Below are positions 2,186-60,211 of a DNA stretch of 64,000 nucleotides, in pieces. The notes beneath the pieces are model-generated. The model worked only from the letters and a program-made list of their open reading frames with translations. It had not been told where the DNA came from and did not search any database. The stretch is from positions 739 through 64,738 of the forward strand of contig JWKX01000001.1 in assembly GCA_000806155.1 (NCBI GenBank), given 5' to 3'. The stretch comes from an archaeon GW2011_AR18 (GTDB lineage Archaea; Nanobdellota; Nanobdellia; SCGC-AAA011-G17; GW2011-AR18). The translations under genes were made by a program, and so were the position numbers. Position 1 is the stretch's first letter. Every line of letters begins with the position of its first letter.

Positions 2186-2752
2186 ACTTCCAAATAATGG
2201 ATATAATACCTTGCTTCCATCTAATGGTGGTATTGGTATCATATTAAATAAGAACATCCATTTATTTATCTCTTTTGTCATTAATAATATCATCATTGTC
2301 TTCTCACTGTATTTTTTCTTAGAATAATCTAATATTAGCATTGGTATTATCCAGAATAATAAATTAATAAATGGTCCTGCAAATGCTGTTAATGAAAATA
2401 GATATGGATTGCTTGTTCCTGAAATACTTACATATCCTGGTGCTATAAGCATTAATGGTGCATTTAATACTTTCATTGCTATCCCTATTATCATTCCTGT
2501 AGGCCATATCTCAAATACTGCTTTAAATCCAAATGCTAATGCTACAAACTTATGTCCTAGTTCATGGAATATCACTCCTGGTGCTGCTGCTAATACTGCT
2601 ATCTTGAATTCTTCCCAGTTGAATCTTTTTAATGAAGTTAAAACATCTTTATTTGGTATCTTTATTACACCACTAAATATATATCCTACTACTAAAGTAG
2701 TTATTACTAAGTATATGATTTCTAGTGGTGTTATTATCACTTTACTCTTCAA
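2174..2752 (-). CDS. site-2 protease family zinc metalloprotease (peptidase M50)
   Basis: HELGH zinc-binding motif inside a TM helix and a downstream PLDGS (LDG) motif, in a multi-TM protein. The start codon is TTG at 2752. Confidence 0.7.
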   Translation of the reverse strand: MKSKVIITPLEIIYLVITTLVVGYIFSGVIKIPNKDVLTSLKRFNWEEFKIAVLAAAPGVIFHELGHKFVALAFGFKAVFEIWPTGMIIGIAMKVLNAPLMLIAPGYVSISGTSNPYLFSLTAFAGPFINLLFWIIPMLILDYSKKKYSEKTMMILLMTKEINKWMFLFNMIPIPPLDGSKVLYPLFGSLFG

Positions 2753-2921
2753 AGCTTAATAACAAGAATACTAATCCTACTACAAATACTACTACTGGTA
2801 TTCCTGCTTTTAGCATCACTAAAAAGTCTGTCCAAAACTTTGGCCATACAAATAATGCATACAATGATGCAACTATTAATAATAAGCCTACAATCATTTT
2901 TACTAATCCGCTTGCTTTCAT
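2742..2921 (-). CDS. small two-TM membrane protein (59 aa), overlaps start of S2P gene
   Basis: Manually translated: MKASGLVKMIVGLLLIVASLYALFVWPKFWTDFLVMLKAGIPVVVFVVGLVFLLLSFEE. Its stop overlaps the TTG start of the downstream gene by 8 nt, an operon-style overlap. Confidence 0.3.
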   Translation of the reverse strand: MKASGLVKMIVGLLLIVASLYALFVWPKFWTDFLVMLKAGIPVVVFVVGLVFLLLSFEE

Positions 2922-2990
2922 GTGTTTTTACTCTTAAGTTCTTATTTATAAGCTTTTTTACAGTAGAAAAGAGGTATCAAAAAGTCAGCC

Positions 2991-3359
2991 TTACATAGAA
3001 ATCATATCGAGATAAAGTCTATCACGTCTACTTGAATAATCTCTTTGACGAGGCATTTTTGGAATTTGCCAATCTCTATTCTTAATTTCTGTAACTACAT
3101 CAACATATGTATGATAAGATAAATCACCCACAATATTGTCACTAGTATTTAATATGTTGATAGAATACATTAAATCTTTAATTACAGGATCTCTAGTTCC
3201 ATATTCTTTCCACATCTCTCTTTGTTCTTTACTAACATCTTCTACATCACGTTTTAGATGAAGTTTTAATGTTCTAAATTTATCAGATAAAGACATCCTT
3301 CTTATTGTAGAAGGTTGTTCAGATTCCATTTCTTGTAGTCTCTGTTGTAAAGCATCCAT
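2991..3359 (-). CDS. hypothetical protein
   Basis: 122 aa ORF with no recognisable motif. Confidence 0.35.
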   Translation of the reverse strand: MDALQQRLQEMESEQPSTIRRMSLSDKFRTLKLHLKRDVEDVSKEQREMWKEYGTRDPVIKDLMYSINILNTSDNIVGDLSYHTYVDVVTEIKNRDWQIPKMPRQRDYSSRRDRLYLDMISM

Positions 3360-3498
3360 GATATTTTATAGTAAAACTAATATATAAAGTTTACGACTAA
3401 TTAACCACTGTATAAAGACAACATTCCATTCATATTTTCTTAATAGTTGTATAACCTCGTAGAAACCTTTAAAAAGCACAGGTTTTTGCTCTTATTTT

Positions 3499-4077
3499 AT
3501 GGGATTATATAAATACTTATCAAAAGCTATCAGAAGCCATTCAACTGAAATGATACAAATTCAGAGAGAGAGAATGATTGAATGGAGAAGAGAGAATAAT
3601 GTTAAGAAAATCGAGTATCCTACTAATTTAGTTTCAGCTAGAAGACTTGGTTACAAAGCTAAGACTGGTTTTATTTTAATAAGAGTTAGAGTTCCTAGAG
3701 GTGGTAAAGCACGTCCTAGTATCAGACATGGTAGAAGATCTGCTCATTCAGGTCAAAGATTAGTTTTCGCTAAAGGTTATCAGAGAGTAGCTGAAGAGAG
3801 AGCTAACAAACAATATCCTAATCTTGAAGTTTTAAATTCTTACAAAGCAGGTATGGATGGTGTTCATTATTGGTTTGAGGTTATAATGTTAGATCCTTAT
3901 AATCCTAATGTTGCTAATTCACCTACTGTTGGATGGATTTCAAATGGTAAGCATAATGGTAGAGTTTATCGTGGATTAACTTCTGCAGGAAAACGCAATA
4001 GAGGATTAGGAAATAAAGGACAAGGTGCTGAAAAACTAAGACATAGTTTAAGAGCTCATGATAAGACTGGTAAGTAA
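3499..4077 (+). CDS. rpl15e: 50S ribosomal protein L15e
   Basis: MGLYKYLSKAIR ... GYKAKTGFILIRVRVPRGG ... YWFEVIMLDP matches the L15e family along its full length. Confidence 0.9.
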   Translation: MGLYKYLSKAIRSHSTEMIQIQRERMIEWRRENNVKKIEYPTNLVSARRLGYKAKTGFILIRVRVPRGGKARPSIRHGRRSAHSGQRLVFAKGYQRVAEERANKQYPNLEVLNSYKAGMDGVHYWFEVIMLDPYNPNVANSPTVGWISNGKHNGRVYRGLTSAGKRNRGLGNKGQGAEKLRHSLRAHDKTGK

Positions 4078-4108: not shown

Positions 4109-5038
4109 ATGATTAAAACTTTAGTTACTAGCTATAATAATCCAGATCTTGATGGTTCTGCTTGTTCTTTTGCTTATGCTGAATTCCTGAATAAGACTAA
4201 CACAGAGATTATAGCAGCAGTATTTGGCAAGATTCATCGTGAGGCAGAGTTTGTTTTTAATAAGTTTAATATTACTCAAATGCAAGACGCTGATGATTTA
4301 AGAAATTTAGAAAATTATAATTTTATTCTTGTTGATTCTTCTGATCTTAAGGGTATTTCAAGAAAGATTATTCCAAATAAGGTTATTGAAGTAATTGATC
4401 ATAGAAAAATTAATGATTCTTATATGTTCCAGAATGCTAAAGTTCAGATTGAATTAGTTGGTTCCTGTGGTACTTTGATTGCTGAAAAATTTTATAATAA
4501 TAAAGTTGATATCTCTAAAGAATCTGCTATTTTATTATATTCTGCTATTATTTCTAATACTATTAATTTTAAGGCTAATGTTACAACTGATCGTGATCGC
4601 AATATGGCTTCTTTTTTAAAGTCTAAATTAGATCTTCCTGATGATTATGCTCATGAGATGTTTTATTTTAAATCTAGATTTAATACTTCTTTGAAAGAGA
4701 CTATTATTCATGATTTTGCTTATTTTAATTTCTCTGATAAGAATATTGGTATTGCTCAGTTAGAGATTGTTGATGTTGATAATTTTATTAAAAATAATTT
4801 AGGAGAATTGAATACTATTCTTAATAATCTAAAAAATGATAGAAAATTTGATTTTATTTTTTTAAGTTGTATTGATATTGAAGCAGGTTTTAACACTTTT
4901 TTAGTTATAGATGATAGTTCTAAAAGTTTAGTTGAGAATTCTTTAAATATTAAATTTAATAATAACATTTGTAAAATATCAGGCATAATAATGAGGAAAG
5001 AGATAACTCCTAAGTTGAAAGAATTTTTAGAAAGATAA
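4109..5038 (+). CDS. DHH/DHHA2 family protein resembling family II (Mn-dependent) inorganic pyrophosphatase, with active-site substitutions
   Basis: Collinear with PpaC (309 aa): NPDLDGS, VIEVIDHR, VGSCGTLIAEKF, AIISNTINFKANVTTDRD and a C-terminal DHHA2-like region. The positions of His9, His98 and Asp149 appear as Y/S, R and N. Confidence 0.65.
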   Translation: MIKTLVTSYNNPDLDGSACSFAYAEFLNKTNTEIIAAVFGKIHREAEFVFNKFNITQMQDADDLRNLENYNFILVDSSDLKGISRKIIPNKVIEVIDHRKINDSYMFQNAKVQIELVGSCGTLIAEKFYNNKVDISKESAILLYSAIISNTINFKANVTTDRDRNMASFLKSKLDLPDDYAHEMFYFKSRFNTSLKETIIHDFAYFNFSDKNIGIAQLEIVDVDNFIKNNLGELNTILNNLKNDRKFDFIFLSCIDIEAGFNTFLVIDDSSKSLVENSLNIKFNNNICKISGIIMRKEITPKLKEFLER

Positions 5039-5040
5039 TA

Positions 5041-6417
5041 CTAATAACAAACATATGTTTCTTCTTCTGGTAATGGTTTATACTTTAGTTTAGGACCATT
5101 TTTAGAAATTTCTTTTAATGCTTCAACTAATATATCAATATCTTTTTCTGTATTGTGTATTCCTATGCTTGCTCTTACTATCCCATAAGAAGCTAACCTA
5201 TTGCCTTTTTTTATTTGCTCTTCTATTTTATTCTGTTCTTTATCATTAATATTAAACCATCTTCTTACTAATCTATGATTACATATTGTTCCAGCTCTTG
5301 TCTCTATCCCATATTCATTTTCCAATATAGAAGATAATAATGCATGATGACAATCTTTAAGATTGAAAGTAAATGTTCCTATTCTATCTTCTTCTAGATA
5401 TGTTTCTGGTTTAACATACAAAGTTATTCCTGGAACTGTTCTTAACTTCTCTACTGCATAATCTATTAATTTTCTTTCATGATTAATAATATTATTCCAT
5501 CCTGTATTCATTATTGTTTTACAACTTGCTGATGTTGCTATTATTCCTGTAACATTCCAAGTTCCAGTCTGATGTCTTAGTTCCGAAGGTGACCAGATTA
5601 CACCTGTTTCATTTATCATGTCTATTGAACCTCCGCCAGGATCTACAGGTGAAGTTTCTAAAATTTTCTTGGGTAAAGCTAAAACGCCTAATCCAAATGG
5701 GGCATATAATTTATGTGAAGAGAAAGCTAATGTGTCTATATTATCATTTTTCATATCAATTTTCCTATGTGGTGCTAATTGTGCTGCATCTACAAATAAT
5801 AGTGCATTATGTTTATGTGCTATTTTTGAAATCTTTTTTATATTGGGGATATATCCTGTTAAGTTTGAAGCTCCAGTTATTGTTATTAATTTTAAGTTCT
5901 TGGAATATTTTTTTGCTTTATTTTCTAGATCTTTATAGTCTATTGAACCATCATCAAAAGAGTTTATATAAATAGTTTTACAACTGCCAAATTTCCATGG
6001 TAAGTTGTTTGATGTATGTTCAATGAATGAAGTTAGTACTACATCATTTTTACTGAATTTTAATAATCTTGATAATAGGTTTATTGCATTGCTTGTATTT
6101 GATGTGAAGATTAATTCTTGATCTTCTCTTAGATTTAGGAATGTTTTTATTGTTTTTATTGCTTCAGTTGCTTTTTTATATGTTATATTAGCATGAGGTC
6201 CAGCTCCCCTATGTAATGCCCCATAAGTTTGTAAAAATTCATTAACTTCTTTTAAAGTTTCTTTAAATGGTGGTGTTGTGGCTGCATTATTCAGCATTAT
6301 TATTTTTTTAACACTTCCATTCTTTAATTTTATAGAGTTATTTGTTCCAATGACTTCTGGAAGTATATTTTTCATATAATTCAACAATAAACAAGATTTA
6401 TATCCCTTATTATCCAA
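5041..6417 (-). CDS. aminotransferase class V fold PLP-dependent enzyme (cysteine desulfurase-like)
   Basis: SSHKLYAPFGLGVL PLP-lysine motif and a class V fold N-terminal region, with a roughly 60 aa C-terminal extension. Confidence 0.75.
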   Translation of the reverse strand: MDNKGYKSCLLLNYMKNILPEVIGTNNSIKLKNGSVKKIIMLNNAATTPPFKETLKEVNEFLQTYGALHRGAGPHANITYKKATEAIKTIKTFLNLREDQELIFTSNTSNAINLLSRLLKFSKNDVVLTSFIEHTSNNLPWKFGSCKTIYINSFDDGSIDYKDLENKAKKYSKNLKLITITGASNLTGYIPNIKKISKIAHKHNALLFVDAAQLAPHRKIDMKNDNIDTLAFSSHKLYAPFGLGVLALPKKILETSPVDPGGGSIDMINETGVIWSPSELRHQTGTWNVTGIIATSASCKTIMNTGWNNIINHERKLIDYAVEKLRTVPGITLYVKPETYLEEDRIGTFTFNLKDCHHALLSSILENEYGIETRAGTICNHRLVRRWFNINDKEQNKIEEQIKKGNRLASYGIVRASIGIHNTEKDIDILVEALKEISKNGPKLKYKPLPEEETYVCY

Positions 6418-41595: not shown

Positions 41596-41705
41596 CGCCC
41601 TGGCCGAGATTTGAACTCGAGTTATGACCTTTCGTTGACAAAACATTATATAAAATAAAGCTTCATCTCGACAGGGTCAGGTGCTGACCGCTACACTACC
41701 AAGGC
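41596..41705 (-). tRNA. tRNA-Asp (GTC) with canonical-position intron (~38 nt)
   Basis: GCCTTGG-TA-GTGT-AGCGGTCA-GCAC-C-TGACC-CTGTCG[intron]A-GGTCA-TAAC-TCGAG-TTCAAAT-CTCGG-CCAGGGC-G. Confidence 0.75.
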
Positions 41706-41763
41706 CTAATTTGAAGTCTATTCAAGTAATTTATAAATTTTTCTCATTTTAAAAAGAATAGAG

Positions 41764-41925
41764 TCCCCTAGGAGGGATTCGAACCCCCAGCCTGTCGGGA
41801 TCAGCTGTTTGTTTTTCATTTCTTAGCATTATGCTTTTGATCAAACAATGATTTTCATCTACAGCCGACTGCTCCACCGCTACTCCCCTTATACTAAATG
41901 TATATAGAGCTTGAGCTACCAGGGG
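41764..41925 (-). tRNA. tRNA-Tyr (GTA) with two introns (D-loop ~30 nt and anticodon loop ~60 nt)
   Basis: Acceptor CCCCTGG/CTAGGGG with a C1-G72 pair. D-stem GCTC ... GAGC, with an insert inside the D-loop. Anticodon stem GTCGG/CCGAC, loop CTGTAG[intron]C. T-arm GGGGG-TTCGAAT-CCCTC. Confidence 0.65.
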
Positions 41926-41949: not shown

Positions 41950-42747
41950 TTAGGTATTTAAAATTTGCTCCCAATTGTGTTTTTTTCTTGGGTAATAAAA
42001 ATTAGTGTTGTTATACAATATTTCATAAAGTTTAGAACAATATTCCTTAGGAATGTATAACTCAAAACACGTGCTTCCAAATTTAGGATTTTTAACGTTA
42101 ATTTCTAAAAATGAAAATTTATCTTTTAACTGATATAAAAATTTCTCAGAACCTGATGATATCTTTAAATTTCCATGTCTTGAGTGAGGAACATGTCCAT
42201 CACCATCTATGATACCTCTAATTAGGTTTGATAAAAATAATTTAGAAGAGGGCATATTAGGCATTTCAATTATTAAAGATTTATCACCAATAGGAACATT
42301 AAATGTATTATGAAAAAAATCAACCAAAGGTTTAGAACTAATAGTAATCTCATTATTGATTAATTTATTAAAACCGTATCTTCTAGGCCTAACAGACACT
42401 TTATAATTAAAAAGATTATAAGCAAGTTTGGAAATAAGTGCTAATTCAGCCATATAACTTGTATAAAGACACACTTTATTAGAATCATACTCTTGAGTTA
42501 AATGCCCATCAGTAATTAACAATCCTAAAAAATAATATAAATCTGGATTTTCTAGCGAAGGAATTTGTGCTGTTTGGAATCTCTTAACTTTATAACCACT
42601 AGCTTCCATTAGATTATTCCAACTTCCAAAATACTTCTTAGAATAATAATTTAAAGCATTAGAATCATATTTTGTGGGTCTTCTTCCTAGTTGATTATGA
42701 TATATCTTTATTTCAGAAATTAGATCATTTTTAGAGGAAATAATCAT
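41950..42747 (-). CDS. LAGLIDADG family homing endonuclease (double-motif, free-standing)
   Basis: Two dodecapeptide motifs, YYFLGLLITDGHL and IRGIIDGDGHV, about 100 aa apart. 265 aa. Not embedded in an obvious host ORF. Confidence 0.8.
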   Translation of the reverse strand: MIISSKNDLISEIKIYHNQLGRRPTKYDSNALNYYSKKYFGSWNNLMEASGYKVKRFQTAQIPSLENPDLYYFLGLLITDGHLTQEYDSNKVCLYTSYMAELALISKLAYNLFNYKVSVRPRRYGFNKLINNEITISSKPLVDFFHNTFNVPIGDKSLIIEMPNMPSSKLFLSNLIRGIIDGDGHVPHSRHGNLKISSGSEKFLYQLKDKFSFLEINVKNPKFGSTCFELYIPKEYCSKLYEILYNNTNFYYPRKKHNWEQILNT

Positions 42748-43614: not shown

Positions 43615-43674
43615 TATAGTAATTTAATAAACCTTTCTACGCACTATATTATCTCAATTAATATCATAAGGTGA

Positions 43675-43962
43675 TTAGTTATTTATTTCTAAGAATTGTC
43701 TTATCTCGCTTACTTTTCTAGGATTTAACGATATATGTTCATCATATCCTTTTCCTGTTCTTTTTGATGTTATTATTATCCATTCTTTGTTTGTTAGTTC
43801 TTTTATTGTTTTTGCTATTATCTTTATTCCTTTGTGTGTATTTCTATAATGTTCTGGAATTCCTTTTGTTATGTAATCTAATAGTATATGTTTTCCTCCC
43901 CAGGTATTTGTTCTTATTAGTTTTTGTATAATTAATTTTTGAAGTATGATATTATCATTCAT
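43675..43962 (-). CDS. hypothetical small protein downstream of minD-like gene
   Basis: 95 aa, basic. Confidence 0.35.
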   Translation of the reverse strand: MNDNIILQKLIIQKLIRTNTWGGKHILLDYITKGIPEHYRNTHKGIKIIAKTIKELTNKEWIIITSKRTGKGYDEHISLNPRKVSEIRQFLEINN

Positions 43963-44131
43963 TAAGATAAAAAGTATTTATTGTTAATAAGTATTATCAG
44001 CAAATTTCTGAAGATCTTTCATTAATTTTAGAAGAAAAGCATAAATTTCAAGAAGATTTTACTAATTGACATTTGTATACATTGATGTATAATAACAAAA
44101 GGTTTAAATATTTATTAATCTATGATATTAT

Positions 44132-44464
44132 ATGAAAGCTGAATCTATTTTCCTGAAATATATTGGTGATAATCCAAGGATGAGAGTATTGCAATACTTG
44201 ATAGAAGGTAGGAACTTTGATTATACTATTACAGATTTGCTTAATGCTAATGTAAGTTGGGGTACATTGAATAAATTACTCCCAGAGTTTTTTAAATTAA
44301 GTATGGTGATAAAAACTAGAAAAATAGGCAGAGCAACATTATACAGGATAAATCAGGACAATAATATGATTAAACAATTAATGAAATTATATGATGATTT
44401 AATACTTCAAAGATTAGAAAAAATAGATTCTAAAGAAAATAAGAAGTTAGAAATTGCAAATTAG
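44132..44464 (+). CDS. winged-helix transcriptional regulator
   Basis: MRVLQYLIEGRNFDYTITDLLNANVSWGTLNKLL is HTH-like. 110 aa. Confidence 0.5.
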   Translation: MKAESIFLKYIGDNPRMRVLQYLIEGRNFDYTITDLLNANVSWGTLNKLLPEFFKLSMVIKTRKIGRATLYRINQDNNMIKQLMKLYDDLILQRLEKIDSKENKKLEIAN

Positions 44465-44552
44465 AGTTCACTTATAGATTTAAGAGAAATATATTTTCTA
44501 CACACAACTAGTTAATTTTATAAATAAAACACCATCTCAAATTATTAAAGAT

Positions 44553-44697
44553 GGGCCTGTAGCTTAGCTTGGTTGAGCATCGAGTAAATTAAATTTTACG
44601 TGCAAGTCTTATATGACCACTTTAGCTTCATAGAAGTTTTATAGCTAAAGAGTGCTAAGTTAGCCGAAGGTCATGGGTTCAAATCCCGTCAGGCCCA
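44553..44697 (+). tRNA. tRNA with large insert (~80 nt) in the anticodon-arm region; isotype unresolved
   Basis: Acceptor GGGCCTG/CAGGCCC plus A. D-arm TAGCTTAGCTTGGTTGAGC. T-arm ATGGG-TTCAAAT-CCCGT. A TATA-like box lies about 25-35 nt upstream. The anticodon stem-loop cannot be assembled without splicing. Confidence 0.55.
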
Positions 44698-44715
44698 TTC
44701 TTTTATTTTTAAAAA

Positions 44716-45147
44716 TTATTCTAGAACTGTCATTCCCATTACACTCATTAATAATATTGGTAAAGATGAATGATATATTCCTAAACTTGCTACTCCCAGT
44801 ATGTATGAATCATGTCCGAATATTATTAGTCCTAATCCTCCTAGTAAGAATATTAATATTCCAAATGCTAATCCTAATGATAATATTCCTGCAAATAATA
44901 AGTTTTGATCATGTTTTTTTCTTATTGTCACGAAATAATATGTTGAGCTTACTAGTAAAATTATTACAGAGATTATTACTAATAATAATGCACTTATTTC
45001 TATATTTGGTGTTAAATGTGAATATGCTTTTATCCCATTATCGCTTATTATTAATATATTTATATCAGCTAGCCATAATGATAATACAAATAAGAATCCT
45101 ATTGCTAATGCTGTTGGATTTATGCTTAATCTCAGCTCTTTTTTCAT
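44716..45147 (-). CDS. hypothetical polytopic membrane protein
   Basis: 143 aa with four hydrophobic helices. Confidence 0.4.
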   Translation of the reverse strand: MKKELRLSINPTALAIGFLFVLSLWLADINILIISDNGIKAYSHLTPNIEISALLLVIISVIILLVSSTYYFVTIRKKHDQNLLFAGILSLGLAFGILIFLLGGLGLIIFGHDSYILGVASLGIYHSSLPILLMSVMGMTVLE

Positions 45148-45229
45148 ATAATTTTTATTGTTTTATAGGATAATAAAGTCTTTTGTTTTCAGTTAACTTT
45201 AAAAATGAATTCTTTATTCAATTTATTAA

Positions 45230-59782: not shown

Positions 59783-60048
59783 TAGTAGGCACGCCCAAGA
59801 GTGGATACACTAATCTTCACAGGTTGAGTCCTAATCTTTCCTCTACCCCGCTACCCTGTAAGCGTTATCTTGAATGCTTATTGTTGCTTTGTTCCCAATC
59901 TCACAAGTTTCACAATCAAAACAACCAGACAGGACAGGATATCACTGTAGTTATTAGGGCCTGCAAAAATTAATGCATCGCCTCTTGGACTTCGACTCCA
60001 TCTAAGACCGTTTATGGTTACAGGTGCGGCCTAAACACCCAGCCTAGC
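59783..60048 (-). ncRNA. ffs: candidate signal recognition particle RNA (7S RNA)
   Basis: Minus-strand reading contains the Alu-domain-like GGGUGUUUAGGCCGCACCUGUAACC (UGUAAC motif). A helix-8-like GUUGUUUUG ... CAAAGCAAC contains AGCA. Termini pair (UAGGC/GCCUA). No ORF is coherent across the region, and there are T-runs at both ends. Confidence 0.45.
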
Positions 60049-60211
60049 TTTTTTTAGTCCGAATGAGAATGGATATTTGTCTTCTGTTCCTTCCTCGCTT
60101 AATATCATTGTCTTATGTCCTTTAAATTCTCCTGTTTTTGCTGTCATTTTATTTTTCTCCTTATGATTTTATTTAAGTTTTAAATTTAGTAGATTATTAT
60201 ATACTTTATGA

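Follow-up and report, generated by a model that had tools for sequence, protein, structure and literature searches.

A tRNA-Tyr(GUA) gene interrupted by two introns, one in the D-loop and one in the anticodon loop, lies on the minus strand at 41925..41764 of a 64,000-nucleotide (nt) stretch of DNA from archaeon GW2011_AR18 (contig JWKX01000001.1, positions 739 to 64,738, GenBank assembly GCA_000806155.1), referred to below as the window. It is best explained as a functional gene of a Woesearchaeota (DPANN) archaeon, a reading to which we assign a probability of about 0.9. The neighbouring RpoB'' matches a 'Candidatus Woesearchaeota archaeon' protein at 100% identity; the G+C content of the window is about 30%, its rpoB is split, and it encodes a signal recognition particle RNA of the archaeal type. 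A two-intron tRNA-Tyr is ordinary for DPANN archaea, in which multi-intron tRNAs are already documented; it is a linked homing endonuclease gene and a structured intron that lift this one to moderate interest. The main import of the gene concerns annotation, as ARAGORN, and the Rfam tRNA model at its gathering score, overlook essential tRNA genes in DPANN genomes.

A tRNA-Tyr gene with two interruptions

Three exons and two introns make up the gene (Table 1; RNA position 1 corresponds to window position 41925 and RNA position 162 to 41764). The acceptor stem is formed by CCCCUGG (RNA 1-7) and CUAGGGG (155-161), with 7 base pairs (bp) including one G-U, the D-stem by GCUC (10-13) and GAGC (52-55), whose strands stand 38 nt apart in the unspliced RNA, and the anticodon stem by GUCGG (57-61) and CCGAC (128-132). 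The terminal CCA is not encoded. When both introns were removed in silico, the remaining 72 nt were identified by ARAGORN as tRNA-Tyr(GUA) with a perfect cloverleaf, comprising stems of 7 bp (acceptor), 4 bp (D), 5 bp (anticodon) and 5 bp (T). Removal of the D-loop segment only led ARAGORN to report a tRNA-Tyr with a 59-nt intron. The spliced product carries C1-G72, A73, U8, G18G19, U33, the T-loop UUCGAAU and G53-C61, of which C1-G72 and A73 constitute the archaeal/eukaryal tyrosine identity set.

An earlier sequence-only reading of this DNA had proposed a tRNA-Tyr with introns in the D-loop and the anticodon loop. In-silico splicing yields tRNA-Tyr(GUA) from exactly the coordinates it gave, on the minus strand; its assignments of the acceptor stem, anticodon arm and T-arm agree with the sequence and with the spliced cloverleaf, and the introns that it put at about 30 and about 60 nt measure 31 and 59 nt. 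It had also named a decayed copy as the scenario that would undo it, and this is contradicted by the comparative data given next, namely by exon constraint and a compensating base pair.

The comparative evidence comes from a synteny set of 80 loci retrieved through RpoB''. A tRNA-Tyr(GUA) gene stands upstream of rpoH in about 30 of the 80, usually followed by tRNA-Asp and tRNA-Lys, and the resulting Tyr-Asp(-Lys) cluster is found upstream of rpoH-rpoB'' in many of them. The window gene and 30 syntenic Woesearchaeota genes were compared as 31 orthologues, all of which (31/31) have the GUA anticodon, C1-G72 and A73. The anticodon stem is paired in 100% of the cells of the orthologue alignment, with pair 27:43 occurring as CG, GC, UA and AU. 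A 98% relative, L001 (loci are cited by such identifiers where needed), shares the two-intron gene. Its exons are 97.2% identical to those of the window, and the two differences are the two sides of a single pair, 5:68 (U5-A68 against C5-G68). Identity falls from the exons to intron 2 (86%), intron 1 (77%) and the flanks (about 62%), a gradient expected of a working gene with weakly constrained introns and arguing strongly against a decayed copy.

A TATA-like box at -30..-37 precedes most of the 31 tRNA-Tyr genes, that of the window included, where it falls within the last codons of an upstream endonuclease open reading frame (ORF). The T-rich tract that directly follows the discriminator base is a likely transcription terminator, as read from the sequence. 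A scan for T-arms found three in the window and no alternative tRNA-Tyr gene there.

Splice motifs and structure of the two introns

The D-loop intron is inserted between tRNA positions 15 and 16. In the window its central helix pairs GCUC (RNA 10-13) with GAGU (41-44) at 4 of 4 positions, and is bordered by 3-nt bulges on opposite strands (5' AAG, 3' AGC), the 5' bulge being closed by an inner helix of CUCU/AGGG plus UAUAC/GUAUA. By the cleavage rule of the canonical case, in which each bulge is cut behind its second nucleotide, the splice sites fall between RNA 15 and 16 (5') and between RNA 46 and 47 (3'). The unconstrained minimum free energy fold includes this relaxed bulge-helix-bulge (BHB) motif. 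It fails as a strict hBHBh' motif, since the outer helix has 0 bp in all of the 17 genes known to carry the intron, and is of the relaxed HBh' type, a recognised variant that requires a broad-specificity endonuclease (PMC3239211).

These 17 independent tRNA-Tyr genes, 6 from the synteny set (window included) and 11 from metagenome loci, have the insert at exactly 15/16. In 15 of them the central helix is complete (4/4), and in the other 2 it has three pairs (3/4); both bulges are 3 nt long in 17/17, while the intron measures 17-37 nt and the inner helices, of unrelated sequence, 3-10 bp. Covariation links the central helix to the D-stem, the combinations being GCUC/GAGC, GCGC/GCGC, GUUC/GAAC and GCUU/GAGC. 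Splicing at 15/16 restores a normal D-arm throughout, 15 nt long (GCUC-AAYGGUR-GAGC) in most genes and 16-17 nt in two, and the D-arm that the relative L002 has without a D-loop intron, GCTCAACGGTGGAGC, is the very one predicted for the window after splicing. The 3' end of the intron thus supplies a stand-in for the 3' strand of the D-stem.

Non-canonical introns are found at other positions of tRNA-Tyr as well. A further intron occurs at 43/44 in five loci (L017, L022, L051, L082 and L089) and at 53/54 in three (L002, L086 and L092); L086 and L092 have three introns each. At both positions there is a BHB-like motif in which the intron 3' end mimics the displaced strand of the stem. Together with the 17 natural variants of the 15/16 motif, these variants define what the DPANN splicing endonuclease must accept.

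Processing would then proceed as follows. The gene's own TATA promoter would yield a precursor transcript of some 160-170 nt, from which EndA, the archaeal tRNA-splicing endonuclease, would excise the 31-nt intron at 15/16 and the 59-nt intron at 37/38 before an RNA ligase joined the exons. At the D-loop, the 5' strand of the D-stem, GCUC, would pair with the intron-borne copy of its 3' strand, GAGU, placing the cleavage sites in the two 3-nt bulges, with the intron hairpin closing the inner side and no outer helix. Such a motif would need an EndA of broad specificity. Once spliced, GCUC would re-pair with the true GAGC to give the D-arm GCUC-AACGGUG-GAGC. A second two-intron tRNA gene lies only 2.6 kb away, which suggests that the host handles such genes routinely.

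The anticodon-loop intron occupies the canonical site, and a homologous intron of 48-59 nt is present at 37/38 in 31/31 tRNA-Tyr genes. In its BHB register the 5-bp anticodon stem serves as outer helix, the bulges are AGA and AUC, the inner helix has 2 bp, and the central helix CUGU/GCUG pairs at 3 of 4 positions, with U33 facing a U. A competing pairing is also conserved. The 3' end of the intron, ACAGCUGAU (RNA 118-126, 41800..41808), can pair with RNA 57-65 (41861..41869), that is, with the 5' strand of the anticodon stem and C32-U35. Of 30 sequences, 29-30 preserve the pairing of C29-G34 with YAGCYG at the intron 3' end, and many genes lengthen it to include positions 27-28, with the intron acting as a 'decoy' 3' strand.

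Between these ends lies a conserved core, whose two GA dinucleotides, 3-nt bulge (mostly AAU) and apical hairpin recur in 28-29 of 30 sequences. Its helix of 5-7 bp covaries at each of the five pairs tested, both partners being altered in as many as 12 sequences, and between the window and L001 a U-A pair has become C-G. In a test for the kink-turn (K-turn) pattern, which considers sequence only, the 3-nt bulge was found in 25/30 and the GA on the 3' side was invariant. The core thus has what looks like a K-turn-like (box C'/D'-like) geometry. It may recruit L7Ae, which could remodel the more stable, splicing-incompetent fold or aid an intron-dependent modification.

A box C/D guide RNA was considered for this intron and rejected, as no terminal C box is conserved (the 5' end is AUAAAU in most sequences) and the spacers, of 7-10 nt, are complementary to each other. 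No complementarity to a guide target was found in the tRNA, and no Rfam C/D family matched the intron. An H/ACA-like guide for pseudouridine 35 was likewise rejected from the sequences: the ACA box (y-8..y-6) is present in only 12/30 and the geometry does not fit. Longer anticodon-loop introns, of about 77-95 nt, were observed in the tRNA-Tyr genes of L085, L090, L095, L098, L099, L100 and L105, and a still longer one in L087. This group has a different internal structure, and some of its members appear to carry two AAUGAAA-type elements.

A homing endonuclease in the tRNA-Tyr 5' flank and the rival readings

The tRNA-Tyr gene, which starts at 41925, has immediately upstream of it a free-standing gene for a LAGLIDADG homing endonuclease whose ORF stops at 41950, leaving 24 nt between the two. 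The acidic residue is retained in each of the two LAGLIDADG motifs (LLITDGHL and IIDGDGHV), and the motifs are conserved in the homologue of L053. The endonuclease gene is absent from L001, whose identity to the window, about 90%, extends across the ParA gene upstream, breaks off and picks up again 13 nt ahead of the tRNA; in the gap, L001 has 347 unrelated nt in place of 880. Among the 31 syntenic genomes the endonuclease occurs in three, those of the window, L053 (full length, 2929..3735) and L030 (truncated, 2666..3154). The copies of L053 and L030 also stand directly upstream of tRNA-Tyr and are the only homologues among the 80 synteny loci. No endonuclease remnants were found at E <= 10 upstream of tRNA-Tyr in the endonuclease-less genomes, beyond those two loci. 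With its presence/absence polymorphism between close relatives, its patchy distribution and a degenerate copy, the endonuclease behaves like a mobile element.

A metagenome scan, queried with an alignment of the two full-length endonuclease proteins, recovered 24 further loci (L082-L105) with full or near-full-length relatives of 38-46% identity, L081 being the window sequence itself. Enough downstream sequence was available at 21 distinct loci, window, L053 and L030 included, and 21/21 have a tRNA-Tyr(GUA) gene in the same orientation 10-83 nt downstream. On the upstream side the neighbouring genes belong to six or more unrelated groups, and no two loci share a downstream neighbour. The endonuclease family is therefore specific for the 5' flank of tRNA-Tyr. 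We found no published account of an archaeal tRNA gene with a free-standing LAGLIDADG gene associated with it.

It is conceivable, though we hold it only tentatively, that the D-loop intron is present and patchy because it travels with this adjacent endonuclease, an idea that would extend the reading of a functional two-intron gene and does not exclude it. In a first variant, collaborative homing, the target cut by the enzyme would lie near the D-arm of tRNA-Tyr DNA that lacks the intron, and the intron, by splitting this target, would protect the allele that carries it. In a second, co-conversion, the intron would hitch-hike whenever the endonuclease homes into the tRNA-Tyr 5' flank, about 28 bp lying between the intron and the boundary of the endonuclease. 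The intact acidic residues of the two-motif enzyme speak for such travel, as do its clean absence from L001, its truncation in L030 and its constant position before tRNA-Tyr in spite of unrelated neighbours. The D-loop intron is moreover enriched in endonuclease-linked genes (14/21, against 3/28 unlinked genes; one-sided Fisher p = 6e-5, a test that ignores shared ancestry), and its state is structured on the endonuclease tree. Precedent for collaborative homing is found in the cyanophage F-CphI and the psbA intron (PMC6083498), and the mechanism by which archaeal tRNA introns are gained or transposed has been stated to be unknown (PMC4090602).

On the other side, non-canonical introns are missing altogether from five linked genes and confined to 43/44 in two more, so the D-loop intron is not required for coexistence with the endonuclease, and three genes hold this intron without any endonuclease. 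An absolute link between the two, as in the first three cases, was accordingly given up, the metagenome set showing enrichment only. The association may simply reflect an old linkage between an element specific for the tRNA-Tyr flank and one ancestral intron-bearing allele. That a LAGLIDADG family specialised on the tRNA-Tyr 5' flank in Woesearchaeota propagates the 5' part of the gene linked to it, intron included, is a speculative proposal, with the odds against it. The linkage of a non-canonical tRNA intron with a mobile homing endonuclease may account for the spread of such introns, and the association renders one mechanism of tRNA intron spread directly testable.

Much less probable is that the D-loop insert is retained in the mature tRNA as an expanded hairpin and that only the anticodon-loop intron is spliced. 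The missing outer helix of a canonical BHB could be taken in its favour. Yet two 3-nt bulges 4 bp apart and a 3' strand mimicking the D-stem, found in 17/17 genes, would be pointless in a retained loop; the length and sequence of the insert vary freely, while the spliced D-arm always has its normal 15-17 nt; and both close and distant relatives function with an uninterrupted D-loop. A hairpin of about 31 nt at 15/16 would also disrupt the contact between G18G19 and the T-loop.

Least probable of all, and close to negligible, is the reading as a chance resemblance or as a pseudogene through decay or disruption, with junk inserts that are never removed: standard scanners make no call, both splice motifs depart from the strict BHB and the examination covered part of the genome, but the exons are far more constrained than introns and flanks and differ from L001 only by a compensating pair, the same interrupted architecture with covarying splice helices recurs in 17 divergent lineages, promoter and terminator are in place, and redundancy is unlikely given that the window has no other tRNA-Tyr and that Nanobdellota have a median of about 35 tRNA genes per genome (2026 preprint).

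Several points do weigh against a functional two-intron gene. The relaxed BHB scan, taken alone as evidence, is nonspecific, returning 52 candidate site pairs in 162 nt, and weight was therefore placed on the spliced product and the comparative data. At the anticodon loop, U33 stands opposite a pyrimidine in 29/30 sequences, which makes the canonical BHB imperfect, and, in nearest-neighbour energy predictions for the window sequence, the fold in which nucleotides 27-35 pair with the intron 3' end comes out about 11 kcal/mol below the BHB fold (-49.4 vs -38.6). A search for EndA, by its tRNA-intron endonuclease domain, found none in the 25 window ORFs scanned, a set that left out the larger ORFs. 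The window represents 64 kb of the genome, and an intact second tRNA-Tyr may lie elsewhere. Lastly, it is from sequence and comparison that we infer transcription, cleavage by EndA, ligation and the EndA type, as well as the splice junctions and aminoacylation.

Neighbouring genes, annotation and known systems

Table 1. Coordinates of the tRNA-Tyr gene, its parts and other features of the window
Feature	Position in window	Strand	Details
tRNA-Tyr(GUA) gene, complete	41764..41925	-	162 nt; exons 15 + 21 + 36 nt, two introns; in-silico splicing, orthologues
Exon 1 (RNA 1-15)	41911..41925	-	acceptor 5' strand CCCCUGG, U8 A9, D-stem 5' strand GCUC, A14 A15
Intron 1, 31 nt (RNA 16-46), tRNA position 15/16, D-loop	41880..41910	-	relaxed bulge-helix-bulge
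Exon 2 (RNA 47-67)	41859..41879	-	D-loop remainder CGGUG, D-stem 3' GAGC, A26, anticodon-stem 5' GUCGG, loop CUGUAG
Anticodon GUA (RNA 64-66)	41862..41860	-	
Intron 2, 59 nt (RNA 68-126), canonical 37/38	41800..41858	-	
Intron 2 conserved core (RNA 78-117)	41809..41848	-	UUGUUU/AAACAA helix, GA, apical hairpin, 3-nt bulge AAU, GA
Exon 3 (RNA 127-162)	41764..41799	-	C38, CCGAC, variable loop AGGCU, T-arm GGGGG-UUCGAAU-CCCUC, CUAGGGG, discriminator A73
TATA-like box TTTAAATA	41955..41962 (-37..-30)	-	within last codons of endonuclease ORF
T-rich tract ctctattcttttt	41751..41763	-	directly 3' of discriminator base; read from sequence
LAGLIDADG homing-endonuclease gene, free-standing, 265 aa	41950..42747	-	Pfam LAGLIDADG_3 (E = 3e-9) and homing-endonuclease-associated repeat
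tRNA-Asp(GUC), 38-nt intron at 37/38	41596..41705	-	ARAGORN intron mode, Rfam
tRNA-Ile(UAU), two-intron	44553..44697	+	T-arm scan; spliced 74-nt cloverleaf; conserved in L001
tRNA-Ile(UAU) intron at 29/30, 23 nt	44583..44605	+	central helix GCAU/GUGC 4/4, inner helix 5 bp
tRNA-Ile(UAU) intron at 37/38, 48 nt	44614..44661	+	central helix CUUA/UAAG 4/4
tRNA-Ile(UAU) TATA-like box	44518..44525	+	T-tract 3' of gene
Archaeal signal recognition particle RNA	59783..60054	-	Rfam RF01857, 123.9 bits

Three tRNA genes lie within a 3-kb stretch of the window, all of them interrupted and two of them twice. The second two-intron gene, tRNA-Ile, is 2.6 kb from tRNA-Tyr. An anticodon CAU was tried for it and gave poor BHBs, and was replaced by the UAU model, which has two 4/4 central helices. 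A 166-aa ORF at 44673..45173, which overlaps the 3' end of this gene, is probably spurious. The geometric rule applied here, which may be too strict for the host enzyme, yielded no strict BHB at 37/38 for the intron of tRNA-Asp. Relaxed motifs appear to be normal in this host, as the tRNA-Asp intron also lacks the strict form.

Some local observations may be added. The tRNA-Asp intron has the 5' end AGAUGAA and the tRNA-Tyr intron starts with AUGAAAA, so that GAUGAA is shared by both junctions. The tRNA-Lys(UUU) genes beside tRNA-Asp look heavily disrupted in nine loci (L021, L022, L024, L040, L050, L052, L055, L057 and L069); in several, the 7-nt anticodon loop CUUUUAA seems isolated between two inserts, flanked by GGUGAA... 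and ...CAAGC. About 900 nt of the window (43641..44543), holding two small ORFs (43675..43962 and 44132..44464) with no Pfam matches, are missing in L001, which for its part has 434 extra nt (4784..5217) between tRNA-Tyr and tRNA-Asp.

In its default mode ARAGORN reported no tRNA in the whole 64-kb window, and its intron mode called the tRNA-Asp as the sole one. The Rfam tRNA model matched the unspliced tRNA-Tyr partially, with 17.8 bits against a gathering score of 29. Two genes, tRNA-Tyr and tRNA-Ile(UAU), therefore go unseen by both ARAGORN and Rfam at the gathering score, while tRNA-Asp is missed by default ARAGORN and found by its intron mode and by Rfam. The prediction of the sequence-only reading that standard scanners would miss the tRNA-Tyr gene thus holds for ARAGORN in both modes and for Rfam at the gathering score, but BHB-aware tools probably detect such genes. 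Kaneta et al. (2018) applied tRNAscan-SE 2.0 in archaeal mode and SPLITS to DPANN genomes (PMC5829648), and a 2026 preprint using tRNAscan-SE -A detected tRNAs for all amino acids except Trp and Val across 208/208 complete Nanobdellota genomes; the judgement on BHB-aware tools rests on these results. The same reading had held that multi-intron tRNAs with non-canonical positions are restricted to a few archaeal lineages. This is broadly right, but the host belongs to one of them, the DPANN, and the gene is expected rather than exceptional. Apparent 'missing tRNAs' in such genomes are often disrupted genes, as the genes hidden in this window indicate. The study of Kaneta et al. (2018) also takes incomplete tRNA sets to indicate unidentified disrupted genes (PMC5829648).

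Archaeal tRNA genes with up to three non-canonical introns, relaxed HBh'/hBH motifs and matching endonuclease types are well documented (PMC4090602; PMC3239211). A review names the non-canonical positions 3/4, 20/21, 22/23, 25/26, 29/30, 30/31, 45/46, 53/54, 56/57 and 59/60, followed by 'etc.' (PMC4090602). Multi-intron tRNAs were extended to DPANN, one Woesearchaeota genome included, by Kaneta et al. (2018), who also link the L3-loop EndA reported in DPANN lineages to more tRNA gene disruption (PMC5829648). The EndA types that cut relaxed motifs are (alpha-beta)2, epsilon2 and alpha4 with an L3 loop. The multi-intron tRNAs of Thermoproteales, Thaumarchaeota, Nanoarchaeota, ARMAN and other DPANN resemble the window gene in combining a canonical 37/38 intron with a non-canonical one, in the relaxed BHB (two 3-nt bulges 4 bp apart, with one flanking helix missing) and in belonging to lineages reported to have a broad-specificity EndA. 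Earlier treatments of such tRNAs reportedly include those of Marck and Grosjean in 2003, Sugahara in 2007/2008 and Fujishima in 2011. Unlike that set, the 15/16 intron recurs in 17 Woesearchaeota tRNA-Tyr genes and is linked to a homing-endonuclease gene.

Among archaeal tRNA introns, a functional module is established only for that of tRNA-Trp, whose C/D guide sR50 directs Cm34 and Um39 (PMC7994747). Intron 2 of tRNA-Tyr is like it in holding a conserved structured module with K-turn-type GA/GA in an intron at the canonical position. It differs in that it keeps one K-turn-like (C'/D'-like) element, mostly lacks a terminal C box and has spacers that pair with each other.

For the endonuclease, two systems invite comparison. 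LAGLIDADG enzymes such as I-DmoI, I-PorI and their relatives are encoded inside archaeal rRNA introns. They are of the same enzyme family as the endonuclease of the window, are archaeal and are tied to introns of stable RNAs, whereas the window endonuclease stands outside intron and gene, in the 5' flank, and the 17-37 nt introns are too short to encode a protein. Group I introns in Woesearchaeota rRNA genes are also on record (PMC6125680). In the case of F-CphI and psbA, as here, a free-standing homing-endonuclease gene stands beside a conserved gene whose intron encodes no endonuclease (PMC6083498). There, a phage protein gene is interrupted by a self-splicing group I intron and the enzyme is of the Endo VII type, in contrast to the protein-spliced BHB intron, the archaeal tRNA gene and the LAGLIDADG enzyme of the window locus, where cutting of the intron-less allele and protection by the intron are hypothetical and about a quarter of the endonuclease-linked tRNA-Tyr genes have no non-canonical intron.

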